NCBI GenBank assembly: GCA_007375645.1
Contig: VMER01000001.1
Span: forward strand, 209,211 to 273,210
Length of the DNA: 64,000 bases
Direction of reading: 5' to 3'
From: Parcubacteria group bacterium LiPW_15
GTDB taxonomy: Bacteria > Patescibacteriota > Minisyncoccia > UBA6257 > 2-01-FULL-56-20
Position numbers and translations under genes: made by a program. Positions 6,477 to 64,000 of this stretch are shown here, one piece after another; within the stretch, counting starts at the first letter, position 1; every line of letters begins with the position of its first letter. The notes under the pieces were generated by a model, which saw nothing but the letters and a program-made list of their open reading frames with translations, was not told where the DNA came from and searched no databases.

Positions 6477-6494
6477 ATACAAAAACCGCCCGAT

Positions 6495-6854: not shown

Positions 6855-6867
6855 TATCGCAATCCAA

Positions 6868-7308: not shown

Positions 7309-7387
7309 TGGTTTTAAGATTATCGATTAATATTTGTCGACGCAAACGAACAGAAATATTCTAACAAAAAATGCGGATGGAAAAAAG

Positions 7388-8146
7388 TTACGCAGTCGGG
7401 ATTTCCTTCTTTACCGCGAGCGCGGCAGCCTCTTTCTGTCCGGAGTGAATGGCTTCCTTAATTTTCGCGAGGAACCAATTGATGCTCAAGCGGGACTTGG
7501 TGTTGCCCGGAACGAAATAATCCACATCATCCGGGTTGGTGTCGGTGTTCACATACGCGACTATCGGGATGTTCAACTTTCTCGCTTCGCGGATCGCGGC
7601 TTTGTGGGAATTCGGATCAATGACCACGAGAACTTCCGGACGGGTGGTCATATTTTCCATTCCGCTCATAAGTTCATCCATCTTCTCCAAGTCTTTCCTG
7701 ATACCGAGCTGTTCTTTCTTGGTGTACTTTTCAAAAGCACCCGCGGCGTTATCGGCTTTCAACTTTTTATAGTATTCAAGGCGCTTGCTGATAACTTTAT
7801 AGTTGGTGAGCGTTCCGCCAAGCCAACGCACGGAAACCGCCGGATAGCCGAAAGCTTTTTGAATATCGGTCACGGCTTCAAGCGCGGCAGGCTGAGTACC
7901 GACGAAAAGCATCGAGGTTCTGGCCGCGGCTTTGGCTTTTACGAAATCCATAACTTCGTCGAGTTTTTCCAAAATCTTTCCCATATGGATTATTTCCACG
8001 TTGTTTCTGGTCGTCAAAATAAAAGGACGCATCCTGGGATACGTTTTAGTCTTGGTGCGACCGACAAAAACTCCGGCCTCCACCATCGCGTTGGTTTCCG
8101 GGTCGTCTATGGTTTCTACTGGCGCTACAATCGGTTCGTCTGCCAT
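7388..8146 (-). CDS. rpsB: 30S ribosomal protein S2
   Basis: 252 aa; strong S2 family similarity (FVGT..., VIDPN...IP). Confidence 0.95.
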   Translation of the reverse strand: MADEPIVAPVETIDDPETNAMVEAGVFVGRTKTKTYPRMRPFILTTRNNVEIIHMGKILEKLDEVMDFVKAKAAARTSMLFVGTQPAALEAVTDIQKAFGYPAVSVRWLGGTLTNYKVISKRLEYYKKLKADNAAGAFEKYTKKEQLGIRKDLEKMDELMSGMENMTTRPEVLVVIDPNSHKAAIREARKLNIPIVAYVNTDTNPDDVDYFVPGNTKSRLSINWFLAKIKEAIHSGQKEAAALAVKKEIPTA

Positions 8147-8280
8147 TATTTATTTTTTATTTTGTTTATCTTGGTTCGCTTTAAAGCCGGAATATTATTA
8201 TGAGCCTTTTGGCCCAATCACGGCCGAAGCAACGTAGGAAAAGTATAGGTGAAATGGCCTTGAATGTCAATTATTTGCCT

Positions 8281-9375: not shown

Positions 9376-9456
9376 TGCCGCAGGATTATACGATAATTTT
9401 ACAAAATTGAAAAGAAAAGGAGCCCCCGAAGGGGCTCCGAAAAGAACCTGGAAACG

Positions 9457-10692: not shown

Positions 10693-10800
10693 GGTTTTCC
10701 CCTTTCAAGTTGCAACTTATTGCTGCGTTCATACTAAACTTTGAGTTTTTAAAAAACAAGAAAGGCCCCCGACGTGAGTCGGGAGCCAAGGTGCAGTGAA

Positions 10801-13596: not shown

Positions 13597-13760
13597 TTGG
13601 CATACCTCCTTTTCGTTTCTTCTTTTCAGTTGTCAGGCTGCTGATTTCATTCTAGGCAAAACTGAGTCGACCGCAATAGCTCCGAAACAAATATGGATTA
13701 AAAACAAAAGCCCCGCGAATGTCGAGTGACTCTCGCGGGGCTTTTACAATTATTTTTTAT

Positions 13761-14330
13761 TTAACTTTTGTCTACGCGCTCTACGTACTCGCCGGTCTCG
13801 GTATTAATTTTTACAACATCTCCTTCGTTGATAAAAAGCGGAGCATTAATAGTCGCGCCACCCTCCAAAGTAATAACTTTATTTCCGCCCTGCGCGGTAT
13901 TCCCTTTTATAGACGGCGGAGCCTCTACAACCTTAAAGTCCATCTTGATCGGCATAGCCACTTTGATGACCTTGTCTTTAAATATAGTGGCGACAACCGG
14001 GGTGTTCGGCTTCAAGAACTTGGCCGAGTCCCCTATCACCTCTCCGGAAAGCGAAAATCTATCCGCGGCATTCTTCTCATCGCAGAACCAATACTCTCCG
14101 CGGTTAGCGTAAAGAAATTTGGAATTCTTTCTTTCTATCTCCGCTTCTTCAAAACTATCCGAACCTTGCCAATTGCGTTCCAAAATTTTTCCGGTTATCA
14201 AATTTCTTATCTTGGTGTTCACGGTCGCCTTCCGTTGCTGCATACGCAAAAAATTCATCTCCAAAACTTCGTAGGGAGCGCCCTCCAAAATAAATAAGGT
14301 TCCTTTGGTTAATTCGTTATATGAAAGCAT
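13761..14330 (-). CDS. efp: Elongation factor P
   Basis: 189 aa; EF-P KOW/OB domain architecture. Confidence 0.93.
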   Translation of the reverse strand: MLSYNELTKGTLFILEGAPYEVLEMNFLRMQQRKATVNTKIRNLITGKILERNWQGSDSFEEAEIERKNSKFLYANRGEYWFCDEKNAADRFSLSGEVIGDSAKFLKPNTPVVATIFKDKVIKVAMPIKMDFKVVEAPPSIKGNTAQGGNKVITLEGGATINAPLFINEGDVVKINTETGEYVERVDKS

Positions 14331-14431
14331 CGGTCTTATTAAAATTTGTTCGCGACAGCCTTGTCATGATACCAAAATAAATATTTTTGTCCACCAAACA
14401 AAAAATCACCCCGTTCGGAGTGATTCTTTGC

Positions 14432-14728
14432 CTATTCTGTCGGAGCGGCCGGCGCCTCCGGTCTCTCAAAAGTCGAACCTTCGGGTTCTTCGATTTTCAG
14501 ATTCACCCGAGCATTATTTTTCATACCGACAATCCTCAAAAGCGAACGGATGGCCTTGGCGGTCGAACCTTGGCGGCCGACGACTTGGCCCATGTCTTGC
14601 GGATGCACTCGGAGCGTCAAAAGTACGCCTTGTTCGTCTATTCTGCGTTCAATCTTAATATCATCCGGGTGGTCAACCAGAGCCTTTACAAGGCTCGATA
14701 GAAATTCCTGATCTGCGGTGTTATTCAT
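14432..14728 (-). CDS. KH-domain RNA-binding protein (UPF0109/YlqC-like)
   Basis: KH motif VGRQGSTAKAIRSLL; canonical position downstream of rpsP; start chosen at MNNTADQ. Confidence 0.7.
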   Translation of the reverse strand: MNNTADQEFLSSLVKALVDHPDDIKIERRIDEQGVLLTLRVHPQDMGQVVGRQGSTAKAIRSLLRIVGMKNNARVNLKIEEPEGSTFERPEAPAAPTE

Positions 14729-14798
14729 TTTTAAATAGAATTCGCGACCTTTCAAAAAACATACGACCCACAACCAACAACTTACAACCTAAACCGAA

Positions 14799-15083
14799 TT
14801 ACGCTTTCTTTTCTTTCTTCGCCTTAGTTTTAACGGCAACTTTTTTCGCATCCACGATCTTTTCTTTCACCAAGATATTGTGGAGCGAGGGGCTGGCTAG
14901 AGCTCCAACCTTGAGCCAATAATTGACTCTCTCCTTATTCAAAGTCGCCTTCTTGCTGAAGGGGTTATACGAGCCCAAATCCTCGAGCGCTTCGCCGGTC
15001 AGCTTGGAACGCTTTTCGGCAACCACAACCCGGTAGCTCGGCTGATGCTTTTTGCCTCTCCTTGAAAGTCTTATTACCAACAT
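14799..15083 (-). CDS. rpsP: 30S ribosomal protein S16
   Basis: MLVIRLSRRGKKHQPSYRVV matches the S16 N-terminus; the ORF track shows a 5' extension. Confidence 0.85.
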   Translation of the reverse strand: MLVIRLSRRGKKHQPSYRVVVAEKRSKLTGEALEDLGSYNPFSKKATLNKERVNYWLKVGALASPSLHNILVKEKIVDAKKVAVKTKAKKEKKA

Positions 15084-15185
15084 GTTTTCCAAGTCTAACA
15101 AAAAACCGAAAAAGGTCAACCCCCATATGATTTTATTGACAGTTCTAGGGTCAAAGAGAATACTTCAGGCAGCACAGGAGGAGTT

Positions 15186-15938
15186 ATGCGCATCCGAGGA
15201 ATCCTCATCGTTCTTTTCTTCCCACTGCTTCTGAACGCTCAAGACAACGAGACCTGCAAGGACAATGAGCCTCCGGCGGACTACAACGATCCCATGGAGG
15301 CAATCAAGGCAAGGGCGATCAAGATCGCCCAGGACAGATACGTGAGGCTTGAAGCACAGAGCATTCTCGAGGAAGACTCCGATGAACCGTTTTCCGCAAC
15401 CGCAGTCCGTGTCGGCTGCAGACTGCTCATTTCCAACTTCCACGCGCTTCAGGCGCACTTCGTCACCAGGGAACCAGTCGCTGCCATAGGACCGGTCGAG
15501 AAGGAAAGGTTGGCGGAAATCAGCGTTAAGGGCCTGACTTCGCCCCGCGACCTGATCGCGATCGAATCCGAGACCGCGGTTGCAGGTTTACCACCGATCA
15601 AATTCGCAGAAAAAGTCTCCCCCGGAGAAGTGGTCCTGAACTGGTCGAACGCCAACGGAAGGAATGGATTCCTGAAGTTCTACTACGTTGCTCGAGGCGA
15701 AAAGAATGGTTTCATTCTCCTCGATCGACCGGCCATTCCCGGAGAATCCGGTTTCGGCCTTTTCAATCTCAAAGGAGAATTGGTGGGAATCGTGTCCGCC
15801 AACATCCAGCGCGGCGATGACAACGACGAAGAACCGCCCCAAAGGTTCTACGGCATGGTCATAGCTGCGAATACCGTGAAGGCGTTCCTGCGGGCGATGG
15901 ACGAAGACGTGGGAGCCCTGAACGAGTGCAAGAAGTGA
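15186..15938 (+). CDS. Secreted trypsin-like serine peptidase (high-GC cassette)
   Basis: Signal peptide MRIRGILIVLFFPLLLNA; S1-family GESGFGLF...GELVGIVSA motif resembling GDSGGP; promoter-like TTGACA-17-AATACT upstream; hairpin terminator at about 15945-15970. Confidence 0.6.
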   Translation: MRIRGILIVLFFPLLLNAQDNETCKDNEPPADYNDPMEAIKARAIKIAQDRYVRLEAQSILEEDSDEPFSATAVRVGCRLLISNFHALQAHFVTREPVAAIGPVEKERLAEISVKGLTSPRDLIAIESETAVAGLPPIKFAEKVSPGEVVLNWSNANGRNGFLKFYYVARGEKNGFILLDRPAIPGESGFGLFNLKGELVGIVSANIQRGDDNDEEPPQRFYGMVIAANTVKAFLRAMDEDVGALNECKK

Positions 15939-15975
15939 GCACAAGCCGCCCCGCGAATAGCGGGGCGGATTTATA

Positions 15976-16995
15976 TTATTTGGAGGAAGAAATTATTTTC
16001 GGATACATATCGAGAAGCGCAAAGAGCAGGCTTATTACCAACGGCCCGGCGATAAATCCAATAGGACCGAAAAAACTCACGCCGCCCAAAATACTCAAAA
16101 GCACGATGAACGGATGCGCGTCCACTCCTTTTTCCATAAGCTTGGGACGCAGATAGTTATCCAGGGTTCCCACGATAAGAAGCCCCCAAACCAAGTTCCC
16201 TACTCCGGCAAAAGTTGAACCGGCGATAAAAAGATAGATAGACGCGGGAATAACCACGAGGCCCGTACCTACGGCCGGGATAAGCGCGGCGAGCGCCGCC
16301 ACGAGTCCCCAAAGAATGGGCTGAGGTAAACCGAAAATAAAGAATCCGAACCCGGCGACCAAACCTTGGATTACCGCAACAATCAATGTCCCCTTTATGG
16401 TGGAACTTGCCGCAGTCTCAAGTTTTCCCAAAAGTTCATCGTCCACTCCTTTGGGCATAGGGCTCAATATCGCAAATCTATTTCTTATTTCTTTTCCGTT
16501 TTTAAGACAGAAAAAAAGCGAGAAAAGTCCGAGTACCAAATTCAAGAACGCCGTGGCCACACCGGAGAAAAGCGATCCCAGATGGGCGAGCAGCCAATCA
16601 AGCGCTCCCCTCGCATAGGAATCAACGTCCACAGAAGAGAATGTGAGTTGCGGGACAACCACTTCGATCTTCGAAGCCACCGCATCTATCACCGCGTTTA
16701 TGCCGGCTCCGGCCTCTAGGCCCATATACGCCTGCCTGGCCTCCAAAACAAGCTGTGTTCCTATCGCGGACGCAGGCACAAGAACCAAGAGAACCACCAG
16801 AAGAACGGTCAAAAGAGCGGCTATCGTGGCATGTCCCTTCATCTTCTTATCGAAATATCTATTTATCGGCGAAAACACCACCGCTAAGACCGTTCCGAAG
16901 AAGATCGCCCCGAGATATGGACGTAAGATGAAAAATACCAAAAGCGATACGCCGATGAACAGAGTTAAAAAGAAATATTTTTGATTCTGCTGCAT
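15976..16995 (-). CDS. AI-2E family transporter (PerM/YdiK-like)
   Basis: 339 aa, 8 TM, UPF0118 family pattern. Confidence 0.85.
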   Translation of the reverse strand: MQQNQKYFFLTLFIGVSLLVFFILRPYLGAIFFGTVLAVVFSPINRYFDKKMKGHATIAALLTVLLVVLLVLVPASAIGTQLVLEARQAYMGLEAGAGINAVIDAVASKIEVVVPQLTFSSVDVDSYARGALDWLLAHLGSLFSGVATAFLNLVLGLFSLFFCLKNGKEIRNRFAILSPMPKGVDDELLGKLETAASSTIKGTLIVAVIQGLVAGFGFFIFGLPQPILWGLVAALAALIPAVGTGLVVIPASIYLFIAGSTFAGVGNLVWGLLIVGTLDNYLRPKLMEKGVDAHPFIVLLSILGGVSFFGPIGFIAGPLVISLLFALLDMYPKIISSSK

Positions 16996-21119: not shown

Positions 21120-22052
21120 TCAGAGAGGTTTGGCCTGAAGGAGCTTCTTAGCTTTCTCTCTCAGGTCTTCGGGGACGTCCTCATCATTGATGACGGCGAG
21201 GATATCCTCCTTATCGGGATCAAACTTCTTGAGCTTGTTGAAGGCTCCCCGCTTCAAGTCATCCGGAACGAACTTGTCCCGGAGAATGTCGAAAAGATAG
21301 CATTCGTCAAAATTGCGCTTTTTGAACTCCCTGAAGGCTCCCCGCTTCAGATCATCCGGAATGAACTGCCCACAGATGATGTCGAAGAGATCCTCCGTAT
21401 CGATATCACGCTTTTTGAACTCCCTGAAGGCTTTGCGTTTCAGATCATCCGGAATGAACTGTCCATAGATGATACCGAAGAAATAGCTCTCATAGGAGAA
21501 ACGAGGCTTCTTGAGCTCCTTAAGAGCTTCCCACTTCAAGTTATCCGGAACGGACCGTCCGCAGATAATGTTGAAGAGATTGTTTTCCCTAAGGTTGCAC
21601 TTCTTGAGCTCTTCGAAGGCTTCCAGTTTTAGATCATCAGGAACGGACTCTTCGTGGATGATATCGAGGAGACCGTTTATAATAATGCCACGCTTCTTGA
21701 GCTCCTCGAAGACTCGACGCTTCCAGGAAACATCGGGATGGTTCTGAAGGATCCAAAAAAGATCATCCGTCCGGAAGAACTGGAACATCTTGCCCCAGTT
21801 GGCGTCGAATCCCTCCTCGAGCTTCTTCCGGATCGGCTCCGGAAAGAGAGCGATATCCCAGAAACGGCGCTCTTCCTGTTCTCTCCCCACGCCTTGCTGG
21901 ATACCGTAGAAAGCACGAATTGCTCCGTGACCAAGGAAATCGATTCCTCGCGAGCTCTGAAGAACATCTTTCCCGTGCGAAGAGAAGACCTCCGCGTCGG
22001 TCAGGAAGAGAATCTCTCCCCGACATTCGATCCAGGAGACGAACTCACACAT
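21120..22052 (-). CDS. Tandem-repeat protein (about six 31-aa repeats, ...LFDIICGQFIPDDLKRGAFREFKKR...), high-GC cassette
   Basis: 310 aa; repeats visible in protein and as a 93-bp DNA periodicity at about 21150-21750; N-terminal 130 aa unique; own promoter and terminator (21073-21100). Confidence 0.65.
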   Translation of the reverse strand: MCEFVSWIECRGEILFLTDAEVFSSHGKDVLQSSRGIDFLGHGAIRAFYGIQQGVGREQEERRFWDIALFPEPIRKKLEEGFDANWGKMFQFFRTDDLFWILQNHPDVSWKRRVFEELKKRGIIINGLLDIIHEESVPDDLKLEAFEELKKCNLRENNLFNIICGRSVPDNLKWEALKELKKPRFSYESYFFGIIYGQFIPDDLKRKAFREFKKRDIDTEDLFDIICGQFIPDDLKRGAFREFKKRNFDECYLFDILRDKFVPDDLKRGAFNKLKKFDPDKEDILAVINDEDVPEDLREKAKKLLQAKPL

Positions 22053-22112: not shown

Positions 22113-22142
22113 ATTATACTAATTTTAGAGGAGGATGTCAAA
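22113..22142 (-). promoter_or_regulatory. Sigma70-like promoter (TTGACA-18-TATAAT) for the tandem-repeat protein gene
   Basis: Reverse complement reads ttgaca tcctcctctaaaattag tataat. Confidence 0.4.
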
Positions 22143-22146
22143 ACAA

Positions 22147-23967
22147 TTATCCCCCCGAACGGTTGGCGCGCTTCTCGTCTATTTCGGTCAAATAAATTTT
22201 GCGCATCCGGATGGATTTCGGGGTCACCTCCACCAATTCATCATCCCCGATATATTCCAAAGAATCTTCAAGCGATAAGGTGCGCGGAACTTTCAAAAAT
22301 TCCATTCCGCCCACGCCCTTGGAGCGCATGTTGGAAAGCTGTTTTTCTTTGCAAACGTTCACACGGATATCCATTGCTTTGGCGTTCTGGCCCACGATCT
22401 CTCCTTCGTAAACTTCAAGGCCAGGACTGATAAAAAGTTCTCCCCTGTCTTCGGAACCCATCATTCCGTAAGCGCGGGTGATACCGGACTCGGAAGCAAC
22501 CAGACTTCCGTGCGGGTTGGATTCAAAGTCCCCCTTATATTCTTCGTAATCTTCAAAAATGGAATTCATTATTCCCATTCCTTTGGTCTTGGTCATAAAT
22601 ATAGTGCGCAACCCGATGAGGCCCCGGGTCGGCACCAAAAAGTCCATATAGGCCATGCTGTTTTCCACGCGCATGTCTTTCATGTTGCCCTTACGCTTGC
22701 CCATCTCTTCGATGACCACGCCGGTCGCGTCTTCCGGAACCTCCACGGACAAAACTTCCATCGGTTCAAGTTTCTTTCCGTTCTTCTCGTGGAAAATAAC
22801 CTGCGGACGGGATACCTGGAATTCATAACCTTCCCGGCGCATCTTTTCGATAAGGATGGAAAGGTGGAGTTCGCCGCGTCCGGCAACTTCCCAAGTATCA
22901 AAGGTGTCGGTCGCGTTCACGCGCAAAGCCACGTCGGTATCTACTTCCTTGGCCAAACGCTCGGCCAAGTGCCTGGAGGTCACAAATTGGCCTTCCTTGC
23001 CCGCGAACGGAGAATTGTTAACCATAAAATTCATTTTCACGGTCGGCTCTTCAATATCTATGGTCGGAAGCGGCTGCGGATTGTCTTTGTCGGTGATAGT
23101 CTCGCCGATAGAAACATCCGTGATACCCGCGATAGCTACAATGTCTCCCGCGGTCGCTTCGTCCACATCCACACGCGCGAGTCCGTCAAAAAGCATCACG
23201 TTCGTGAGCGACGCTTTTTTGGTCACGCCGTCGCGGCCGATGTGCGCGACTTCTACGTTCTTTTTAAGAGTTCCGGAATAAAGCCTGCCGATGGCGATCT
23301 TGCCCTTATAGTTGTCGTAAAAAAGATTAACGGTGAGCATCTGAAGGGGCTTGGTCTCATCCACTACCGGAGACGGAATATATTTTATTATCGTATCGAA
23401 AACCGGACGGATATCCGTCATCTCCGAGAGCTCGTGCGCATAACCGGCTTTCCCTTGCGCCCCGGAAGCGTAAACCACCGGAAACTCCGCCTGCTCGTCG
23501 GAAGCGCCAAGCTCGATGAAAAGATCGAAAGTGCGCTCCAAGGCCCAGTTCGGACGGGCGCCGGGCTTATCAATTTTATTTATAACTACGATAACTTTGT
23601 GTCCGGCCTGAATAGCTTTTTTTAAAACGAATTTGGTCTGCGGCATTGGACCCTCTTTGGCATCCACCAAAAGCAAAATACCGTCCACCATGCGCATAAT
23701 GCGCTCCACTTCTCCGCCGAAATCGGCGTGGCCCGGGGTGTCCACTATATTTATCTTGATTCCCCCGTAGTGAACCGCGGCATTTTTGGAAAATATGGTG
23801 ATTCCCCGCTCTCTTTCGAGTTCGTTGGAATCCATAATGAGCGTGTCATCGGCGCCGGTCTTCAATTTAAAATCCGCGGACTGCTTCAAAAGAGCATCCA
23901 CGAGAGTGGTCTTGCCGTGGTCAACATGGGCAATTATTGCGATGTTTCGTATGTTTTTTGGGTCCAT
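22147..23967 (-). CDS. typA: Translational GTPase TypA/BipA
   Basis: G-domain [21 protein letters not shown]; EF-G-like domains; start chosen at [10 protein letters not shown] (the ORF track extends 22 codons upstream without a stop). Confidence 0.93.
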
Positions 23968-24245
23968 AGTAGTCTTGATTTTTAATTCGCGAACGTTGAC
24001 GGGAAGGGGGTCGGGGAAACGGGAGCCCGCCACAGCGGGCAGAAGCTATATAATCCATCCGCTAAAGCGAATGGTGGCCGTGTAGGAAACTTACTCTCAA
24101 TTGGCAGCGAGGAGAAAATAGGTATTAGATATTTTATCCGAGCGAACCAATTGACAGCTCGCTGTCTAACCGAGAGGTTGTGAGGGAGCGAAGCGACGTC
24201 TAGGTGCGCGATTATTGCGATATTTCGTATATTTTTGGGATCCAT
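23968..24245 (-). repeat. About 215-bp GC-rich structured insert bounded by an imperfect duplicate of the typA 5' end (ATGGATCCCAAAAATATACGAAATATCGCAATAATCGCGCAC)
   Basis: 24200-24245 on the minus strand is about 86% identical to the true typA start at 23925-23967; the insert contains several stem-loops (GGCAGCGAG...CTCGCTGTC, CCATCCGC-TAAA-GCGAATGG). Confidence 0.5.
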
Positions 24246-26998: not shown

Positions 26999-28381
26999 TT
27001 ACTCGAAAAACCTTTTCCCTCTCACCCGCTTATGATAAGTGATGGCAAAGCGATGAGCCTCGTCCCGCACTTTGGTTAGCGTGTTTTTGTCGATTCCTCT
27101 GGGAACGATGCCGATTATGTCCGTCCGCTTCCTATCCGGCCCCTTAACCATGCCAATGACCGGGATGCGCAAACCGTTCTCGTCCAAAACTTTTTTAACC
27201 GCGTTTATTTGTCCCGCTCCGCCGTCAACCAGGATAAGTTCGGGCAAGGGCCAGGAGTTTCCGAGACGCCGGCGGATGACTTCTTTCATCATCCCCACGT
27301 CCCCTCCTCCACTCTTAAGCGCGGAGCTACGGAGGGCAGGATTGGGTTCGGAAAAATTCTGAATCTTAAATTTCCGATATTCGTTCTTATCCGGTTCGTT
27401 TCCGGCGAAAACCACCATAGAGCCTACCGCGGACTCCCCGGAAATGTTTGAAATGTCATAACCCTCGATTCGGACGGATGACTTACTCTCTACGCTCGGC
27501 AACAGAGAATCTTCTTTTATGAGCGCGACGTCCTGAATGTGTTGTAACGCAAAGAGCTGTCTCTTTAATCTCTCCGCCTCTTCAAATTCCAGCTTTTTGC
27601 CGGCTCGGATCATTTCTTTCTTCAGATTTTTTATAAGTTTCTCTTTTTTGCCGGCGAAGAACATTTTTAACTTCCCGATGCGTTTTTTGTAATCCGCGCT
27701 CGTTATCGCACCGATACAGGTGCCGGGACAAAGCCCTATTTCATATTCAAAACAGGCGCGTTTGAACTTCGCGTCTTTGGGGTGTATTGACCACGGGAAA
27801 ATCTTTCTCAAGATTCTCATAGCCTCTTTGAGCGCAGAAGCAGACGTGAACGGGCCGTAAGTGGCGCTTCGATTTTTTCCTTTGCCCTCTCGAACCTGCC
27901 TGCCGGCAGGCAGGGCTTCAGCGGAGTAGGGTCGGGCCAAAAGATCCTTGCCACGGACCAAAAGCACCCGCGGGAACTTTTCTTTGGTAATTTCCACATA
28001 CAAAAAACTCTTGTCGTCTTTTTCGAGGACATTATATGGCGGTTGGATTTTCTTAATAAGTTCCGCCTCGAGTATCAACGCCTCTATCGCCGTATCCGTA
28101 TTCCGCGTTTCGATATCGCGGATCTCCCCTACCATTTTCTGAATACGGGGAGCGTGCCTACCCTCCGAAGCCTTACCGCGCCCTCCGAAACCTTGCGTGG
28201 AGGATGGGGCGAAGGAGGGGGGACGGTTAAAGTAGCTCGAAACCCGGCGCTTTAAATTCGCCGCTTTGCCAACATAAAGGATCGCGCCCTTTGCATCTTT
28301 CATTAAGTACACGCCCGGAGTGTCCGGCAAATCCCCACACCTATTGAAAAAATTTGTATTGTTTGGTTTATATCTAGCCAT
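26999..28381 (-). CDS. uvrC: Excinuclease ABC subunit C (UvrC; compact form with a low-complexity insert)
   Basis: GIY-YIG N-terminus (GVYLMKDAKGAILYVGKAANLKRR), UvrBC-interaction and endonuclease regions. Confidence 0.88.
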   Translation of the reverse strand: MARYKPNNTNFFNRCGDLPDTPGVYLMKDAKGAILYVGKAANLKRRVSSYFNRPPSFAPSSTQGFGGRGKASEGRHAPRIQKMVGEIRDIETRNTDTAIEALILEAELIKKIQPPYNVLEKDDKSFLYVEITKEKFPRVLLVRGKDLLARPYSAEALPAGRQVREGKGKNRSATYGPFTSASALKEAMRILRKIFPWSIHPKDAKFKRACFEYEIGLCPGTCIGAITSADYKKRIGKLKMFFAGKKEKLIKNLKKEMIRAGKKLEFEEAERLKRQLFALQHIQDVALIKEDSLLPSVESKSSVRIEGYDISNISGESAVGSMVVFAGNEPDKNEYRKFKIQNFSEPNPALRSSALKSGGGDVGMMKEVIRRRLGNSWPLPELILVDGGAGQINAVKKVLDENGLRIPVIGMVKGPDRKRTDIIGIVPRGIDKNTLTKVRDEAHRFAITYHKRVRGKRFFE

Positions 28382-35992: not shown

Positions 35993-37642
35993 GTGAACAT
36001 CATCAAGAAGTTCACGGTTCTCGTGGCTCTCGCACTCCTCGTCTGCACCGGGACGGCCTACGCGGCCGATCCGCCGCGTCATCCCGTTCCCGTCGGTGAA
36101 CCCGAAGACGCCACAACCGTCATCGGGCACCAAGGGCGCACGGAGCTGCCCTTTCCGAACCCCGCCAACAACACCCTGTACAAGGCGCTGATCGGTGGGC
36201 CGTGTTGGCTCATCGACACCAGACTGGACTCGAAGTTCGACCCGCCGTACGGAAACAAGTCGGGTCAGCTCGGCGACTTCGTTTCCGGCGAGTCGAGGGC
36301 GTACCGCTTCGGCGGTCACCTGCTCGATCTGCCGCTCACGAACCCGTGCAACGACCTGATTCCGAGTTCCGGCGTCGTCGCCCTCAACCTGGAAGTCCAC
36401 ATCTACACGAACGGCCTCGTACCAGGCGGAGTGTTCTTCGAGAACACCCGCTTCGTCCCCGAACTGTGGTCGGCAACGGCGCAGGTCGGGCAGACAGCCT
36501 TCCTGATCTACGAGAAGGACAAGCTCAGCGACTTCATGCCCGGCTTGGTCCAGATCGGCCCCGCTTCGATATACGAACTCGGCGGCCAGTCCTTCCGGCT
36601 GAAGAACGTCGGGAACAGCATCGACGTCGCCGTGAAGATCAATGGCTACTTCACCGAGGACAAGACCGTCGGCAAGGGTGGTCCGGCCGGCAAGGACGGC
36701 GTGTCCTGTTCCGTCGTGCAGACCAACGACCTGTCCTATAAGATGACCTGCGGTGACAAGATCGTCGCCGAATGGTGGTCCGGCAAGGACGGCAAGCCCG
36801 GCCTCAGCGGCCCGCAGGGAGAACCCGGACCCGTTGGCCCGCAGGGGAAACCCGGACTGAACGGTGGCCCGGGACCTCAGGGCCCCATCGGACCCACGGG
36901 ACAGACCGGAGCTACCGGACCGCAGGGACCCATCGGCCCCACGGGAGCGACCGGACAGACCGGACCCATCGGACCGATCGGACCCACCGGTGCCACGGGA
37001 GCAGTCGGACCCATCGGACCGCAGGGACCCATCGGACCCACAGGGCAAACCGGAGCTACCGGACCCATCGGACCGATCGGACCCACCGGTGCCACGGGAG
37101 CAGTCGGACCCATCGGCCCCATCGGACCCACGGGAGCAACCGGACAGACTGGCCCCGCTGGCCCGACTGGCGCTACCGGACCCATCGGCCCCATCGGTGC
37201 CACCGGCCTGACCGGACCGCAGGGCCCTCAGGGAAATCCAGGACCACAGGGGCAGAAGGGTGACACCGGCAATACCGGTCCAGCGGGACCCATCGGCCTC
37301 ACTGGCCCGGGTGGCCCCGCTGGCCCAATCGGACCCATCGGCCCCGCGGGTCCGCAGGGACCCCCAGGCGTCTGCGCCTGCCCGATCTCGTCCGGCACCA
37401 TCGTCTTGAACTGCCCCAGCGCGCCGGAACCGGAAATCAACGGCCGCGAACCGAACTGCGTAACCTGCGCGAAGACGGTGAGCAACGCCGACATCAAGTC
37501 CTGGAGCAACGTCATCTGCTCCTACTCCGGCGGCCCTCTCGCGAGTGACGCGATTCCCTGTCGCGTATACAACGTCCAGAACGGCTCCTTCAAGGTGGAA
37601 GGAATGGCCGGACAGACCATCACCTGGATGGCCAAGAACTGA
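35993..37642 (+). CDS. Secreted collagen-like protein: signal peptide, about 240-aa globular domain, about 190 aa of G-X-Y triplets, Cys-rich C-terminal domain
   Basis: GTG start after AAGGAG; signal [16 protein letters not shown]; about 60 contiguous Gly-X-Y triplets ([16 protein letters not shown]...); 8 Cys in the C-terminal 90 aa; high GC. Confidence 0.8.
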
Positions 37643-58453: not shown

Positions 58454-61027
58454 CTACTTCCCATGGCATTTCTTATACTTTTTCCCCGATCCGCACGGAC
58501 AAGGATCATTCCTGCCTACTTCCTTGGCGCCCGAAGCTTTGGGCAAGATCTTTACAACCTGTTCCGCGGGCTTTTGTTCCTGAGCCTGACCCGGAGGCGG
58601 GAGCTTGAAGATATTCATAAATATCCAGGCTCCAAAATTAGCCCAAAAAGCTTGATAAAGCGTATGCGCTTCTCCTCGATATTCCACGAGCGGATCGCGT
58701 TGTCCGTAAGCCCTAAGTCCGATGGATTCCGAAAGCGCGTCCAAGTCCTCCAAGTGGTTCATCCAAAGCATGTCCAAAATGCCTAGCATTTGGTTCGCCG
58801 CCAAAGGATGCTTGGCCATCACGGAAACGCGCGCCTTCAAGAACTCCGATAGATTTTCTTCCGTCGCATCTTCCGGATATGGATTTTCCTTATTGGCCAA
58901 TCCGACTTCTTCAAATATTTTTTTTAGGTCCGGCTTTTCTACTTCTGGCATATTCTCCGCGGCCGCTATTCCGGCTGAAAGATTTTTAAAATAACCGTTC
59001 ACCGCGTCGAATATCATGGGTTCCAGAGTCTCCGAATTCATCGCCGTCAATATTTCCTGTCGGCGCTTATAGACCGCCGCCCGATGCTTATTCAAGACAT
59101 CATCGTAGTCGAGCAGGTGTTTCCTCATATCGAAATTCGCCCCCTCAACTTTGGATTGGGCTTCTGCCACGGCGCGGGAAATCATAGCCACATCGATCGG
59201 CTCGTCATCGGGAAGATGGAATCTGTCCATTAGGGACTTTATGCGGTCTCCGCCGAAAATGCGCAGCAAGTCGTCTTCCAGCGACAGGAAGAATTGCGAA
59301 GAACCGGGATCGCCCTGCCTGCCGGCGCGGCCGCGCAGCTGATTGTCTATGCGCCTGGCCTCGTGCCTTTCCGTACCAGTCACATGAAGTCCGCCCAATT
59401 CTCGCACCCGCTTCGCATCTTCCGGTGTCGGCGGATTGCCGCCCAGAATTATGTCCACGCCGCGGCCGGCCATGTTGGTCGCCACGGTTATCGCCCCCGG
59501 CTTACCGGCCTGGGCGACTATCGCTCCCTCCCGTTCATTGTTCTTCGCGTTCAAAGTTTCGTGCGGGATATGCGCCTCGCTTAGCAAATTGTCCAAAAGT
59601 TCGTTCTTAGCAATGGAAGTTGTGCCAACCAAAACCGGCTGGCCCTTTTCGTGCCGTTCTTTTATATCGTTGACCAAAGCTATCCAACGCGCGGCGGAAG
59701 TTTTGTATATGACATCTTTGTGATCATTTCTTATGACCGGCTTGTTCGGAGGAATGCTAACAACTTCCAAATTGTAAACTTTGGAAAATTCTTCCGCGGA
59801 AGTCTGCGCGGTTCCGGTCATGCCGGAGATCTTCTTATACATGCGGAAATAATTCTGAATGGATATCTTTCCGTAAGTCTTGGACTCTTCCTGCACATGC
59901 ACGCCCTCCTTGGCCTCAATCGCCTGGTGTAAGCCGCCGTTATACCGCCTGCCGTGAAGCATTCGGCCGGTGAATTCGTCCACGATAATTATCTCTCCGT
60001 TCTTGACCACATATTCTTTATCCTTATGAAAAAGCGCCTTGGCTTTAAGACTTTCTTCCAAATAATGGACCAGGCGCAGATTCTCGGGCGAGTAAAGATT
60101 ATCGACGCCCACCATTTTTTCCACCTTGGCGATTCCCTCTTCGGTTATGGAAACCGAGCGGCGCTTCTCATCCACCTCGTAATCCTCAGGCGCGTTTAGG
60201 TTGATAACCAGTCTCGCAAAGGTTTTATAGAACTGGCTGGATTCCGCATCCGGCGCAGAAATAATTAGCGGGGTTCTGGCCTCATCGATCAAAATAGAAT
60301 CCACTTCATCGATTATGGCAAAAGGAAATCCCCGCTGGACCTGTTCGGTTACCCGGTAGACCAGATTGTCGCGCAGATAATCAAAACCGAATTCGTGATT
60401 GGTTCCGTAAGTAACATCGGCGAGATACGCTTCGCGCCTGGACGCGGGCCGCAAGAATTCCGATTGCACGCGGAAATTTCCGGTAGTGTCTTCTTCTTTG
60501 TCGATAAGCGCTTGGGCATCCTTCGCAACCTCATAGTCCGGGTCATACAAAAAAGCGGTGTTCGGCACGAGGCAGGAAACCGTAAGTCCCAGCGCGCGAT
60601 ATATCTGGCCCATCCAGACCGCATCGCGGCGAGCCAAGTATTCGTTTACCGTGACCACATGCGCGCCGTGTCCGTAAAGCGCATTCAAATAAACCGGCGC
60701 AACGGCGGTCAGAGTCTTTCCTTCTCCGGTTATCATTTCCGCGACCGCTCCCTTGTTCAAAACCAGTCCGCCGATAAGCTGCACATCGTAGGGTCGCTGT
60801 CCCAAGGTTCGCTTCGCGGCTTCGCGGACAAGAGCGAAAGCGCGCGGCAAAACCAGCCGCTCTTCTTCGCCGCTTTGCAGTCGTTCTCGAAGCTTCAAAC
60901 TCTCCGCCTTCAATTCCTCGCCGGTCAACTTCTGTATTTCCGGTTCGAGCGAATTTACTTCGGCTACAATTGTTTCGAAATCCGCGAGCGTTCTGCGCTC
61001 AAATATTTTTTTTATGAACCCAAGCAT
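58454..61027 (-). CDS. secA: Preprotein translocase ATPase SecA
   Basis: 857 aa; DEAD-like motor, PPXD, C-terminal zinc finger CPCGSGKKYKKCHG. Confidence 0.95.
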   Translation of the reverse strand: MLGFIKKIFERRTLADFETIVAEVNSLEPEIQKLTGEELKAESLKLRERLQSGEEERLVLPRAFALVREAAKRTLGQRPYDVQLIGGLVLNKGAVAEMITGEGKTLTAVAPVYLNALYGHGAHVVTVNEYLARRDAVWMGQIYRALGLTVSCLVPNTAFLYDPDYEVAKDAQALIDKEEDTTGNFRVQSEFLRPASRREAYLADVTYGTNHEFGFDYLRDNLVYRVTEQVQRGFPFAIIDEVDSILIDEARTPLIISAPDAESSQFYKTFARLVINLNAPEDYEVDEKRRSVSITEEGIAKVEKMVGVDNLYSPENLRLVHYLEESLKAKALFHKDKEYVVKNGEIIIVDEFTGRMLHGRRYNGGLHQAIEAKEGVHVQEESKTYGKISIQNYFRMYKKISGMTGTAQTSAEEFSKVYNLEVVSIPPNKPVIRNDHKDVIYKTSAARWIALVNDIKERHEKGQPVLVGTTSIAKNELLDNLLSEAHIPHETLNAKNNEREGAIVAQAGKPGAITVATNMAGRGVDIILGGNPPTPEDAKRVRELGGLHVTGTERHEARRIDNQLRGRAGRQGDPGSSQFFLSLEDDLLRIFGGDRIKSLMDRFHLPDDEPIDVAMISRAVAEAQSKVEGANFDMRKHLLDYDDVLNKHRAAVYKRRQEILTAMNSETLEPMIFDAVNGYFKNLSAGIAAAENMPEVEKPDLKKIFEEVGLANKENPYPEDATEENLSEFLKARVSVMAKHPLAANQMLGILDMLWMNHLEDLDALSESIGLRAYGQRDPLVEYRGEAHTLYQAFWANFGAWIFMNIFKLPPPGQAQEQKPAEQVVKILPKASGAKEVGRNDPCPCGSGKKYKKCHGK

Positions 61028-61042
61028 TAATTAAAGTTTCGA

Positions 61043-61372
61043 TTATTTCCCCTCCTCGTCCTTCTTGAAGTCCTTATATTTCTCAACCGCTCTCTGGAGT
61101 TTGTCTTTAGCCAGGTCTATCGCGGCGTAAAGATCCTCCGCCTCTTCGCTCACCTGGAAAGTCTTGGCCGGAATGTGCAGGTTGGCCTTAGCCATATATA
61201 TCTGTCCTTTTTGGTGATGATGCGTGGTAAGAGCCAGCTCTAAGTGCAGATCGGCGGTTCCCTCGGCATCCAAGCGGCTCAAAACCTTCAAAATAGACTC
61301 GAACTTCTCTTCCGCATACGCCACTATGGCATCGGTGGATTCAAGATTCGTATATTTTATCTTTATGTTCAT
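61043..61372 (-). CDS. hpf: Ribosome hibernation promoting factor (HPF/RaiA, short form)
   Basis: 109 aa; sigma-54 modulation protein/S30EA fold pattern. Confidence 0.85.
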   Translation of the reverse strand: MNIKIKYTNLESTDAIVAYAEEKFESILKVLSRLDAEGTADLHLELALTTHHHQKGQIYMAKANLHIPAKTFQVSEEAEDLYAAIDLAKDKLQRAVEKYKDFKKDEEGK

Positions 61373-61460
61373 GTCGTAATCTTAGCTTAAACCTAGCCAT
61401 TTTTCAAAGATTTGCCGATTAAACCCATATAAATGCTGATAAATATGGCCTTTTCCTGAC

Positions 61461-61489
61461 TTGACTTTTTAATAGATTGGTGCTATAAT
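61461..61489 (+). promoter_or_regulatory. Sigma70-like promoter TTGACT-17-TATAAT (copy 1 of a duplicated about 50-bp promoter module)
   Basis: About 80% identical over about 50 bp to 62433..62480. Confidence 0.5.
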
Positions 61490-61608
61490 TACACCAGATG
61501 CTTGAGATGCGTTTTGGTTCCGGAGTAATGGGCCTGCCTGCCGGTAGGCAGGGGCAATCCAGACTTATTATTCCGGAACTGAATAAACATACAGGAAAAG
61601 GAGTCAGA

Positions 61609-61737
61609 GTGAGACGTCTCACCGATTTCCGCGCCATGGTTGTGGCCGCAATCGCCTTCTCGGCGATCTATTACGCTCTCGTTTCAGTGGCGGAACTGTG
61701 TAAGGCCGCCATCGAACTGCTGAAAGCCATCTGCTAA
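61609..61737 (+). CDS. Small hydrophobic peptide (42 aa, GTG start)
   Basis: AGGAG 5 nt upstream of GTG; predicted single/double TM; the ORF track shows a longer 61498 form with no RBS. Confidence 0.4.
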   Translation: MRRLTDFRAMVVAAIAFSAIYYALVSVAELCKAAIELLKAIC

Positions 61738-61779
61738 TTCTAGCCTGACACAACCCACGGTTTAGGAAGGAGAACGAAC

Positions 61780-62343
61780 ATGAACACGCTGAAGATGAGC
61801 AGGGAGGCAAAGAGCTTCGTGGCCATCCTCCTCGGAGTGCTCGGCATCGGATTGACCATCCTCTGGATGGTCGAGACGAACCAGAAGATGGTCATCGAAG
61901 CTCGACAGAGCTCCGCCGTCCAGGATCTCGATCCCGGCAACTTCGTTCACGACGAGCACGAGCTCGTCATCCGCTACGGCAGCCTGAACGGCGTGCCCGT
62001 GGAGATGGTTCGGGACTACACGCACGGAGGACTCGTCCTTCGCGCTGTCCTCCCGGACAAGGATGACCCGCTCGCCAGCCCCGCCCTCGACGCTCTGAAA
62101 GCGGAAGTCATCCGCCTCTGCTCCTCGAAGGAGCCTGTTCCCCTCGGGGACACGGGGTACACCTTCCTGTTCACCGGGGTATGTGACCCCGAGTGGGCAC
62201 CCTACACCACGATCGAGTCGGCGAGAAACACGAGGAACATCCGCTTCATCCGATGGGTCGAACCGATCATCGGAAACGCCATCCGGGGTGGAGGCTCATG
62301 CGATACGAGCTACCGCCCCGCCGGCTACTCCGTGAAAAGGTAA
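61780..62343 (+). CDS. Hypothetical membrane-anchored protein (187 aa, high GC)
   Basis: GGAAGGAG RBS; N-terminal TM then soluble domain with 3 Cys. Confidence 0.55.
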   Translation: MNTLKMSREAKSFVAILLGVLGIGLTILWMVETNQKMVIEARQSSAVQDLDPGNFVHDEHELVIRYGSLNGVPVEMVRDYTHGGLVLRAVLPDKDDPLASPALDALKAEVIRLCSSKEPVPLGDTGYTFLFTGVCDPEWAPYTTIESARNTRNIRFIRWVEPIIGNAIRGGGSCDTSYRPAGYSVKR

Positions 62344-62364
62344 TCGCCCTTCGCCTCACCCCCC

Positions 62365-62403
62365 GCCCGCACAGAAACTTCAAAGCCTGTGCGGGCTTTT
62401 TTA
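62365..62403 (+). terminator. Intrinsic terminator GCCCGCACAG...CTGTGCGGGC plus T6
   Basis: Seen directly. Confidence 0.6.
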
Positions 62404-62434
62404 GTTCAAAAATAAAAACGCCATTGGCATATGC

Positions 62435-62463
62435 TTGACCTTTACATAGATTAATGATATAAT
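62435..62463 (+). promoter_or_regulatory. Sigma70-like promoter TTGACC-17-TATAAT (copy 2 of the duplicated module)
   Basis: Sequence match; paralogous to 61461..61489. Confidence 0.5.
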
Positions 62464-62511
62464 CGCGCCAGATGTTTGAGACACGATAACTCGACAAAAG
62501 GAGGAAGGCTC

Positions 62512-62976
62512 ATGTCCTTCAAAATGCATGTTGTCAACGTCATCACGACTCTGGTCGAGACCGCGCTTCCGCGGTTCTCGGGCGAAAAGAAGCTTCTTTA
62601 CGTTCTTATCGAAGCCGGAGTGACAAAAGAGAAGGTTGCGGTGCCCAGCCACCGCCGGTTCATCCACCTCCTCTTCCACCGGCCCGGCAACCACACGGCC
62701 GTCATGGTGGCCGTGACCGACAACCCCCACTTTCGCAAAGAAGAAATGAAAGACTGGCGGGTGGTTTCCTGCCACGATTCCTGCTGGAGGTCGGATGGCG
62801 TGGAAAGTCCGCTCTCCAAGCTATACTTCGAGATGTGCAAGGAGGTCGATTCGGCGGCTGCGCCCAGAGACCTTTGGGCGACTGCCCAGTTCTCGATCTT
62901 CGATAGCCCAAAGGTGGTGGAAGTGAAGAAGTTCACCCACGACCGCGAAAACTTCATCGCCCACATCGAGTGGTAA
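62512..62976 (+). CDS. Hypothetical protein (155 aa, high GC)
   Basis: AAAGGAGGAAGG RBS upstream of ATG (MSFKMHVV); the ORF track shows a longer 62476 form. Confidence 0.55.
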   Translation: MSFKMHVVNVITTLVETALPRFSGEKKLLYVLIEAGVTKEKVAVPSHRRFIHLLFHRPGNHTAVMVAVTDNPHFRKEEMKDWRVVSCHDSCWRSDGVESPLSKLYFEMCKEVDSAAAPRDLWATAQFSIFDSPKVVEVKKFTHDRENFIAHIEW

Positions 62977-62989
62977 CAGGGAGAAGACG

Positions 62990-63283
62990 ATGAAAACCAA
63001 GATCAAGGAATACCAACTTCTCGGTGACAAATCCGCAGCCCCGCGCCTGATCCAGTTCAAAGGACGAGAGCTGGTGGTCAGGCAGAAGAAGACCGACGAA
63101 GTATCCGGGATCGACTACGTAATCGTCCCCGGATTCAAGGTCGGAGGACCGCACGCCTCCACTTCCAGGTACTTCACGACCCTTCAGGCCCTCGACGTGG
63201 AACTGGTCGGAAACGACGATCGGGAAGCGATCAAACAGCTCCTCCGGGAGCTCGGATTCAAGGGCCCGATCAGCTTCTGGTGA
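62990..63283 (+). CDS. Hypothetical protein (97 aa, high GC), operonic with 62512
   Basis: AGGGAGAAG RBS; 13-nt gap to the upstream gene. Confidence 0.5.
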   Translation: MKTKIKEYQLLGDKSAAPRLIQFKGRELVVRQKKTDEVSGIDYVIVPGFKVGGPHASTSRYFTTLQALDVELVGNDDREAIKQLLRELGFKGPISFW

Positions 63284-63287
63284 CAGC

Positions 63288-63340
63288 CGCCCCCGCAAGG
63301 AAACTCATCCAAAGCCCATGCGGGGGCTTTTTTATTTTAA
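63288..63340 (+). terminator. Intrinsic terminator (CCCCCGCA...TGCGGGGG plus T-run)
   Basis: Seen directly. Confidence 0.5.
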
Positions 63341-63393
63341 AAAACAAAACCGGCCTTTCGGCCGGTGGAAATTGGGTTGGGATAAGAAGCACC

Positions 63394-63612
63394 CTAGCTT
63401 GACGTCATGCCACCCGTGGAGTCCGCGTCGGGAAGAGCGATGAGGCGGAGCAAGAACTCAGTGTTCGTGACGATGTTCTGCGCAAGCGGCTCCCACCGCA
63501 GCGCTTCGGCCTTGTGATGACCATAGTTCCTGTCATCCAGGATTCGCCTGTAGTCGGCCAACTCGACCTTTATCTTCGCGAGCCTTTCTGCGTCTTCTTT
63601 CGTCATTTTCAC
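63394..63612 (-). CDS. Small hypothetical protein (72 aa, high GC)
   Basis: ORF with a GGAGGGAG-like RBS region upstream; coiled-coil-like. Confidence 0.4.
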   Translation of the reverse strand: MKMTKEDAERLAKIKVELADYRRILDDRNYGHHKAEALRWEPLAQNIVTNTEFLLRLIALPDADSTGGMTSS

Positions 63613-63728
63613 TCCCTCCTTTGGAGCTGACTAATTTATATATCCCGGAATCAACCGCTGTCAAACAAATTAAATCTCCAATTCAAGGCGCTTGAAAAGC
63701 GGCTCTCGGTCTCTATGGGTCCATTTTC

Positions 63729-63870
63729 CTGAACGGCCGCGGAACGCCACAGATCCACTGTGGATCCGAATGGTGACCTCCTATCTGTTTGTTTTAGATG
63801 AATGAGTGCTCTCTTCGGATCCACACTGGATCCATAAATTGAGCACTTCCACGGCCGTTCGCGAAAATCG
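63729..63870. repeat. Long imperfect palindrome (two about 70-bp arms), each arm containing a GGATCCAC(T/AC)TGGATCC sub-palindrome
   Basis: The left arm aligns with the reverse complement of the right arm (gaacggccg...ggatccactgtggatccgaa); a further inverted pair ctatctgtttg / caaacagatag lies at 63779 and 63958. Confidence 0.4.
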
Positions 63871-64000
63871 ACTGTTTTTATACTAGCAAATATCTATCCT
63901 CAAGTGAAGAAGCTCCCCGATCCATAAAACTAAAACCCCCCGGAGGGGGTTTTAGTACAAACAGATAAAATAGAAACAGGTCTAAGTCGATATCATCGTT

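Follow-up and report, generated by a model that had tools for sequence, protein, structure and literature searches.

In the Parcubacteria group bacterium LiPW_15, the locus that lies back to back with hpf, the gene of a ribosome hibernation factor, is in our judgement probably a strain-variable, recombination-prone accessory hotspot of moron-like autonomous transcription units, with two diverged promoter and terminator frames standing in tandem and new cargo in the first of them. Morons, in the concept of Hendrix and Juhala, are autonomous promoter-gene-terminator units inserted between phage genes, recognized by their own promoter and terminator, a deviating base composition and their presence in several phage types (PMC2920897). 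We analysed the locus in a stretch of 64,000 nucleotides (nt) of GenBank assembly GCA_007375645.1 (contig VMER01000001.1, positions 209,211 to 273,210 of the forward strand). We call this stretch the window, and all positions refer to it unless another contig is named. It was compared with related loci, reached through homologues of two of the encoded proteins, of 154 and 97 amino acids (aa), on contigs from Rifle and other groundwater metagenomes and denoted here by L numbers.

The locus lies between hpf and, to judge from the relatives, gtrA and tpiA. Each unit has a near-consensus extended −10 sigma-70 promoter, strong Shine–Dalgarno (SD) sites and an intrinsic terminator, from which strong transcription, independent of the other unit, is predicted for both. 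In the account that we favour, the promoter and terminator frame would be ancestral to the locus, where a single copy would have driven the 154-aa gene, usually together with a gene of 95-97 aa. Frame ‘a’, with a hairpin leader and a type-a terminator, would now house unrelated, lineage-specific membrane proteins of 42 and 187 aa, and frame ‘b’, with a short leader and a type-b terminator, would have kept the ancestral cargo. The tandem state would most likely have arisen from recombination between divergent alleles, or from an old duplication, followed by cargo replacement.

A preliminary description of this DNA had proposed two neighbouring operons under a duplicated promoter module of about 50 bp, and the locus does contain two such operons, each self-contained: there is a 48-nt direct repeat, whose copies P1 and P2 lie 974 nt apart, with a terminator behind each unit. 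The two promoter regions, described as about 80% identical, agree at 38 of 48 positions (79%). P1 reads TTGACT-17-TATAAT and P2 TTGACC-17-TATAAT, both with the TG of an extended −10 element. Each matches the sigma-70 consensus at 11 of 12 positions, they are the two best promoter matches of a consensus scan between 55 and 64 kb, and both have the sequence features of a sigma-70 extended −10 promoter. Whether their similarity exceeds the background for such promoters had been set beforehand as a test, and it does: once the −35, TG and −10 positions are set aside, P1 and P2 still agree at 24 of 34 positions (binomial P = 1.3e-7, for a match probability of 0.27 derived from composition), and a degenerate promoter consensus gave 0 matches in 100 shuffles.

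The module is confined to this locus in the window, in the relatives and in the collection scans, and the suggestion that further copies in the genome would define a cassette-specific promoter family was not borne out there; the collection scans require exact pattern matches, which diverged copies would escape. Searched with an nhmmer profile of eight modules, the window yields P1 and P2 alone (E = 6e-17 and 9e-16), the best remaining match having E = 6.6. A loose promoter pattern has nine matches in GTDB genomes, which are generic consensus promoters (of Firmicutes L32, S16 and pyruvate kinase genes) and four unrelated Patescibacteria sites. In metagenomes of the Joint Genome Institute (JGI), a stricter pattern finds only the same locus, and the promoter pattern has no match in viral contigs. 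Two other promoters were noted. The only other near-consensus extended −10-type promoter of the window, TTGACA-N17-TATAAT with one mismatch to TG, lies at 22113-22141 on the minus strand, between the open reading frames (ORFs) 21120-22052 and 22147-24033. The other is a consensus promoter on the minus strand at positions 7050-7096 of L014, a Patescibacteria metagenome-assembled genome (JBDRBW010000014.1), whose downstream box, GGCAGATGCTTGAAAT, is similar; about 50 nt on comes another consensus promoter, with an apparent structured RNA behind it, and the site is unrelated to the cassette locus.

Each operon had been said to end in a GC-rich terminator, and both ends indeed show a hairpin and a U run: T1 has a stem of 10 base pairs (bp; −20.5 kcal/mol) and T2 one of 9+2 bp (−22.6 kcal/mol), each followed by six U. 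A point missed earlier is that T1 and T2 are homologous to each other, including unusually large, conserved loops. The stem and loop of T1 are those of the terminator after the 95-aa gene in L004, and T2 differs from the terminator of L034 by 1 nt.

Wherever the upstream side is visible in the related loci, the 154-aa gene adjoins a divergent hpf, behind a single copy of the promoter module; the L002 contig ends before any upstream gene but carries the same upstream spacer sequence. L008 has the promoter followed by genes for 154 and 95 aa, and L022 the promoter, the 154-aa gene and a terminator. L004, L005 and L006 have the promoter and hairpin, genes for 154 and 95 aa and a type-a terminator; L023 has the promoter and hairpin, a 155-aa gene and a different ORF with a transmembrane (TM) anchor; and L034 has the promoter and hairpin, genes for 147 and 89 aa and a type-b terminator, followed by gtrA and tpiA. 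In L002, an unrelated 76-aa ORF that is TM and Cys rich stands between the promoter and genes for 155 and 95 aa, which are followed by a terminator and murB. Because the frame is single-copy in seven related loci of other metagenomes, we take the single frame to be ancestral. Two frames are found only in LiPW_15 and in its close relative L001, a separate JGI contig with the same junction from the 187-aa gene through T1 and P2 to the 154-aa gene and with an identical P2 sequence; reproduced in an independent contig, the T1-P2 junction is not an assembly artefact. The junction from P1 through the 42-aa ORF to the 187-aa gene is seen in the window only.

The two frames correspond to different relatives: P1, the hairpin leader and T1 to the L004 type, and P2, the short leader and T2 to the L008, L022 and L034 types. 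P1 and P2 are identical at 40 of 52 positions, compared with 45 of 52 for P1 and L004, 43 of 52 for P2 with either L004 or L008 and 44 of 48 for P1 and L034. As each promoter thus resembles those of other genomes (43-45/52) more than it does its neighbour (40/52), the tandem does not look like a recent duplication in situ. Between the window and L004 (positions 996-1283 of the latter), the 97-aa gene has a synonymous substitution rate (dS) of 0.046 and 93% aa identity, whereas the adjacent 154-aa gene has a dS of 0.74 and 65% aa identity, a contrast that suggests recent recombination, with a breakpoint close to the 3′ end of the 154-aa gene, which is conserved. By these alignments, the locus is a mosaic.

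In composition, the locus stands apart. The operons had been called GC-rich, and their GC content is 0.56-0.62 against 0.50 for the window; the GC content at third codon positions (GC3) is 0.67-0.82 in the genes of the locus compared to 0.59-0.61 in the flanking secA and hpf. Between these genomes, hpf retains 83-90% nt identity, with a dS of 0.6-0.9 and a ratio of nonsynonymous to synonymous rates (dN/dS) of 0.02-0.045. The 154-aa gene has a similar dS but a dN/dS of 0.18-0.31 and a protein identity of 48-76%, and the 97-aa gene a dN/dS of 0.21-0.61. The cargo genes thus change about ten times faster than hpf at nonsynonymous sites, and the dN/dS values of the 154-aa and 97-aa genes are low enough for these to be real coding genes.

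Several points weigh against reading the locus as such a hotspot. The strength and use of the promoters in a bacterium of the Candidate Phyla Radiation (CPR) are predicted from an Escherichia coli-type consensus. The scenario is built on eight loci and a frame of about 50 nt, in which an old tandem duplication is indistinguishable from the capture of an allele. The promoter scan covers 64 kb of a 481-kb genome, next to the exact-pattern scans of the collections. No function can be assigned to the cargo genes by family searches, and the phage contexts of the 154-aa family are mixed, with baseplate hub, DNA ligase and blocks of unknown genes. Finally, the synteny with hpf in all loci could mean a clade-specific, hpf-linked function and not an accessory role.

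How the two units might be controlled is suggested by the conservation of the module itself. The motif AGA..TTGA.A downstream of the −10 element is invariant in all eight modules, including that of L002, the most distant. Window and L034 differ at 4 of 48 module positions (8%), against a dS of 0.61 for hpf of the same pair, and the sequence upstream of the −35 element has diverged between them. The module is therefore more conserved than synonymous sites, which speaks for a constraint beyond the hexamers contacted by RNA polymerase. Either an operator or some element of the initial transcribed sequence could lie behind it, and the conserved spacer, together with the box at +1 to +14, suggests a shared regulator. 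In the strongest form of this idea, the units make up a co-regulated mini-regulon, in which one regulator has its operator in the spacer ATAGATT..TG plus the box CCAGATGYTTGAGAC, AGAT recurring at a distance of 22 nt. This we hold to be possible, though rather unlikely; it is compatible with an accessory hotspot, to which it would add a mechanism in the form of two cargo sets under one switch. The non-core identity of P1 and P2, the invariant motif and the persistence of the module between diverged intergenic flanks all fit it. However, no regulator gene lies in or beside the locus in any relative, and direct reading reveals no clear conserved dyad symmetry, the GGTG..CACC pair of P1 being absent in P2. 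The conservation could also stem from promoter strength, acting on spacer, discriminator and initial transcribed sequence, and the same downstream box can occur by chance behind consensus promoters of Firmicutes ribosomal-protein genes.

One can go further and see the frame beside hpf as a chromosomal ‘expression slot’ whose promoter and terminator are themselves under selection, an integrase-free cassette system for phage–host or cell–cell conflict. If this were true, which we consider unlikely, module and terminator would double as a strong, regulated signal for expression and as homology arms through which strains swap or stack unrelated, fast-evolving cargo, the phage-shared family without a fold match in the PDB included. 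A role of the cargo in phage–host or cell-envelope conflict is our best guess, and its whole basis is that the genes evolve fast and vary between strains, that some encode membrane proteins and that one family is also found in phages.

The position of the 154-aa gene, divergent from hpf with back-to-back promoters wherever the upstream side is visible, invites another interpretation, namely a clade-specific operon functionally coupled to hpf, in stress or stationary phase, to which the extra unit of LiPW_15 is an incidental insertion. The 154-aa gene is under purifying selection (dN/dS 0.2-0.3), as such an operon would have it. Its nonsynonymous rate, however, is about ten times that of hpf; its partner gene has been lost or replaced in L022 and L023; its family is scattered over phages and an island of uncharacterized genes beside a type I restriction–modification system; and the unit adjoins murB in L002 and L024. 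Coupling to hpf is, with this, decidedly unlikely. At the hpf promoter, the motif TTTCAAAGATTT is kept in all orthologous loci.

The second operon had been described as encoding soluble proteins of 155 and 97 aa; both do lack a TM segment, but the first is 154 aa long, and its ORF is 100% identical to LiPW15_302. The genes for 187, 154 and 97 aa are annotated as LiPW15_301 to LiPW15_303, all hypothetical proteins, and none of the five ORFs of the locus has a meaningful match in Pfam, PHROGs, PADLOC or NCBIfam. A hit of the 97-aa protein to aspartate-semialdehyde dehydrogenase is spurious (23.7 bits against an equivalog cut-off of 628). All four proteins of the two operons had been regarded as orphans, which does not hold for the 154-aa protein: a profile search seeded with it retrieves 648 cluster representatives at E ≤ 1e-3, 218 of them at E ≤ 1e-10. 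The family is marked by the motifs LPRFS, HxLFHRPxNYTKV (FHRPxNYT) and SDHDSCWRxDG; among 60 sequences, W92 never varies, and conservation reaches at least 90% at H88, D89, S90 and G96. None of these 60 members matches Pfam or PHROGs. An AlphaFold2 model made with 60 sequences reaches a predicted local distance difference test (pLDDT) score of 96.3 and a predicted template modelling (pTM) score of 0.90, and has no Foldseek match in the PDB (best E 0.058, TM score 0.34), nor does the profile match any PDB sequence. By these searches, the protein is a member of a large, undescribed family with no curated entry or solved fold.

Members of the family occur in at least nine phage or phage-like contigs, among them jumbo-phage contigs of 269 and 360 kb and smaller viral contigs, and also in Myxococcus phage Mx1, with no recurrent neighbour in these phages beyond close relatives. 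The 97-aa protein is restricted to the locus of this clade, where it is absent in L022 and replaced by another gene in L023, and it was not found beside members of the 154-aa family outside the clade. One cellular member, in L035 (positions 4843-16486; GCA_018062285.1, JAGOSO010000002.1), ends a run of small uncharacterized genes with two apparent paralogue pairs (152/166 aa and 153/167 aa), behind which come a YgjP-like gene and a type I restriction–modification system with an inserted AAA_15 ATPase; we take this neighbourhood as an anecdotal hint and not as evidence.

The presence of the family in phages raises the question whether the units are true morons, left by a decayed prophage or other integrated mobile element. 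Their own promoters and terminators and their deviating GC3 would fit the criteria for morons (PMC2920897), as would the phage relatives of the 154-aa protein. Against this, there is no integrase, structural or replication gene, transfer RNA or att-like boundary in the neighbourhood in the window or the relatives, no DNA similarity to any GenBank phage, and no phage relative of the 187-aa, 97-aa or 42-aa proteins. Moreover, the order hpf, cassette, gtrA, tpiA is kept where the cargo proteins are only 51% identical, which speaks for long residence in the chromosome. We therefore find a phage remnant very doubtful.

The structured leader followed by a small hydrophobic ORF that had been described for operon 1 is present by fold and by the list of ORFs, the 117-nt leader folding at −44.4 kcal/mol (z = −4.1). 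Both AAGGAG and the GTG start are unpaired in the minimum-free-energy and centroid folds, and the hairpin does not occlude the SD site. A resemblance to known riboregulators, which was to be checked, was not found in Rfam (cmscan in E-value mode, over 60900-64000 and L002, L004 and L024). Nor is the hairpin tied to the peptide, since the same hairpin precedes the 154-aa gene, without a small peptide, in L004, L023 and L034. It is found in four of eight leaders (those three and P1) and is absent from L008, L022, L002 and P2. Among the carriers, the outer arms are nearly identical, which leaves no informative covariation; the apex is wholly different between the window and L034, and in L004 and L023 it holds an extra nested hairpin. 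No other copy of the outer arms exists in the window. The core, by comparison, equals a perfect 20-nt palindrome, CCTGCCTGCCGGCAGGCAGG, at 27895-27914, inside uvrC (26999-28381, minus strand), where it is read as ..ALPAGRQV.., and recurs in intergenic DNA of L002 (positions 1-22) and L004 (1391-1408). We read the hairpin as a palindromic insertion whose effect is at most to stabilize the 5′ end of the transcript, and not as a peptide-tied riboregulator. Another element of about 115 nt, with terminal inverted repeats of about 24 nt (CCCGTTAGAAGCAGATCGCGATCA ... TGATCGCGGCTTCTAACGGG), lies in L004 at 135-250, between the start codon of hpf and the promoter, and is absent from the window and from the otherwise near-identical L008.

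The first operon contains, as described, a GTG-initiated ORF for a putative peptide of 42 aa with one TM-like segment (from residue 9; value 2.15, Kyte–Doolittle, 19-residue window) and the gene of a membrane-anchored protein of 187 aa, likewise with one such segment (from residue 13; 2.57). The 42-aa ORF has AAGGAG 5-6 nt upstream of its start and is without annotation; its exact sequence and that of a 72-aa ORF further on are absent from a collection of 15 billion proteins. L001, the only homologous copy of the cassette, begins just after its stop codon, and in the other relatives its slot is empty or filled by the unrelated 76-aa ORF of L002, to which the 42-aa ORF shows no similarity. The 187-aa protein has one homologue among 5.8 billion clusters (96% identity, dN/dS 0.225) and no family, PDB or phage match; it is a true orphan. 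We also considered the first cargo as a diverged or overprinted copy of the second and rejected this: BLASTP and hhalign found nothing, a local DNA alignment was no better than those of triplet shuffles, with no trace of similarity to the second cargo or its orthologues, and the resemblance of ‘EPIIGNAIRG’ to ‘EPVGNANRG’ is due to chance.

A small membrane peptide followed by a larger protein had been likened to toxin/immunity or bacteriocin-like modules. Spelled out, the 42-aa peptide would be a membrane toxin or precursor, in a type I toxin–antitoxin or bacteriocin-like system, the 187-aa protein its immunity or processing partner, and the hairpin a control of its translation. The layout agrees with this: behind a stable 5′ leader structure, a short hydrophobic ORF that has a good SD site precedes the gene of a membrane-anchored protein, and the unit comes and goes between relatives, as such modules typically do. 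The likeness finds no support on closer inspection: neither protein matches Pfam, NCBIfam, PADLOC, PHROGs or the PDB, and there is no ABC transporter or peptidase gene nearby. The peptide, VRRLTDFRAMVVAAIAFSAIYYALVSVAELCKAAIELLKAIC, is without any glycine and so cannot have a double-glycine leader (GG/GA cleavage motif). A crude consensus scan, a weak negative, found no antisense promoter in 61400-61800 besides that of hpf. The hairpin leaves the SD site free and precedes the 154-aa gene elsewhere, and the peptide is unannotated and without homologue, the ORF in the equivalent position of L002 being unrelated. We regard a toxin or bacteriocin module as most improbable. Hardly credible, finally, is a chance likeness of A/T-rich consensus promoters, or an assembly artefact joining two strain alleles: consensus promoters share 14 of 48 positions by definition and the genome is metagenome-assembled, but the non-core identity that no shuffle matched, the homology of the terminators and the T1-P2-154 junction reproduced in L001 speak against both.

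The features of the locus and its flanks are collected in Table 1. Downstream of T2, a terminator equivalent to that on the minus strand is conserved in L004 and L034, and in relatives it serves whatever lies downstream. The 72-aa ORF that it serves in the window is absent from L004, L034 and L022, and has a candidate promoter, TTGACA-N17/18-TATAAA, at about 63635-63664 on the minus strand, which was found by direct reading and missed by the promoter scan.

Table 1 Features of the hpf-adjacent locus and its flanks, in window coordinates
Feature	Position	Strand	Details
secA	58454-61027	−	Upstream flank of the locus
hpf (ribosome hibernation factor)	61043-61372	−	Pfam Ribosomal_S30AE, E = 3.5e-16
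Predicted hpf promoter	61379-61407	−	TTGAAA-17-TAAGAT by consensus scan; back to back with P1
Promoter module P1	61460-61507	+	−35 CTTGAC, 17-nt spacer, extended −10 TGCTATAAT, box CCAGATGCTTGAGA at about +1 to +14
Long leader hairpin	61513-61583	+	Palindromic core CCTGCCTGCCGGTAGGCAGG
42-aa hydrophobic ORF, GTG start	61609-61737	+	From the ORF list; putative
187-aa protein (LiPW15_301)	61780-62343	+	N-terminal membrane anchor
Intrinsic terminator T1	62365-62402	+	‘Type a’
Promoter module P2	62434-62481	+	Followed by a short leader without hairpin, through 62511
154-aa soluble protein (LiPW15_302)	62512-62976	+	
97-aa soluble protein (LiPW15_303)	62990-63283	+	Clade-restricted partner of the 154-aa gene
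Intrinsic terminator T2	63289-63335	+	‘Type b’
Minus-strand intrinsic terminator	63349-63366	−	Serves the 72-aa ORF
72-aa ORF	63394-63612	−	More likely 70 aa, from ATG at 63606; strain-specific third cargo gene, GC3 0.75

Beyond the cassettes, the window ends in a long non-coding stretch (63650-64000) with nested inverted repeats, whose arms lie at 63719-63744/63847-63872 and 63752-63770/63814-63832, and which holds a sub-element GGATCCGAATGGTGACCTCC...GAATGAGTGCTCTCTTCGGATCCAC. It is conserved in relatives (L034, 2290-2640), duplicated or expanded in L004 (1480-1985) and found upstream of murB in L024 (1395-1500). It has no match in Rfam and could be an unannotated RNA gene or an element like a miniature inverted-repeat transposable element (MITE). 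Elsewhere in the window, an island of 64% GC at 36-38 kb holds a gene (35993-37642, plus strand) whose 549-aa product carries collagen triple-helix repeats (Pfam PF01391, E = 1e-26), and the repeat composition explains the long ORFs on both strands. A second GC-rich stretch (58%; 10774-13644) carries long ORFs, of about 950 aa, on both strands, with no Pfam match on either.

The locus holds no major surprise, and what is established of its workings ends with its transcription signals. As an accessory hotspot, it would exemplify how an ultra-small CPR genome diversifies, at one site with a conserved frame, by cargo exchanged, stacked and recombined between co-occurring strains. Two of its parts may be of use in their own right. 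The 48-nt module is a candidate strong promoter for CPR genetics, and the 154-aa family, which comprises at least 648 clusters at 50% identity and has members in CPR bacteria, in jumbo phages and in Myxococcus phage Mx1, is a candidate for a domain of unknown function (DUF) entry and suited to functional screening, for example for phage defence or counter-defence.

Among known systems, type I toxin–antitoxin pairs such as Hok/Sok, TisB/IstR-1 and Fst share with operon 1 an ORF of fewer than 60 aa with one TM segment behind a long, stable leader. Here, however, a crude scan finds no promoter for an antisense RNA and Rfam no match, the SD site of the 42-aa ORF is not sequestered, the peptide has no homologues and the same hairpin stands before a soluble 154-aa protein in relatives. 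Class II bacteriocin and immunity pairs resemble it in that a gene for a small peptide stands before one for a membrane protein, within a short operon of predicted strong expression. Unlike their precursors, the 42-aa peptide has neither a double-glycine nor a Sec leader, 58-64 kb contains no C39-peptidase ABC exporter or recognized immunity gene, no regulatory genes are present, and neither protein of the pair matches Pfam or NCBIfam.

The leader hairpin is closer to palindromic insertions of the repetitive extragenic palindromic (REP) or MITE type, being present or absent among near-identical strains, with nested insertions at its apex and a core palindrome that recurs (at 27895 and in L002 and L004); nearby, L004 also has the 115-nt element that is bounded by terminal inverted repeats. 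It differs in that its outer arms are unique in the window and no target-site duplication was identified.

Integron gene cassettes, which are usually promoterless, likewise bring unrelated small cargo genes into tandem at one site in a strain-variable manner. No integrase or attC-like sites are seen at the present locus, where every unit has its own promoter and terminator and exchange has apparently proceeded by homologous recombination on conserved flanks.

Phage morons have several features in common with the units. Promoter and factor-independent terminator belong to each unit itself, the units stand out from the neighbouring genes in GC and GC3, close relatives may have or lack them at a hotspot where the cargo differs, and the 154-aa family, though not the 42-aa, 187-aa or 97-aa proteins, is common to unrelated phages. 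We call the units moron-like and do not class them as morons because the defining location inside a phage is lacking: they sit in a cellular chromosome, next to secA and hpf and, in relatives, gtrA, tpiA and murB, with no phage genes around them. In further contrast to morons, they have resided there long enough for the cargo to be only 51% identical between genomes with synteny kept, and one promoter and terminator frame, conserved across genomes, is reused for unrelated cargo.

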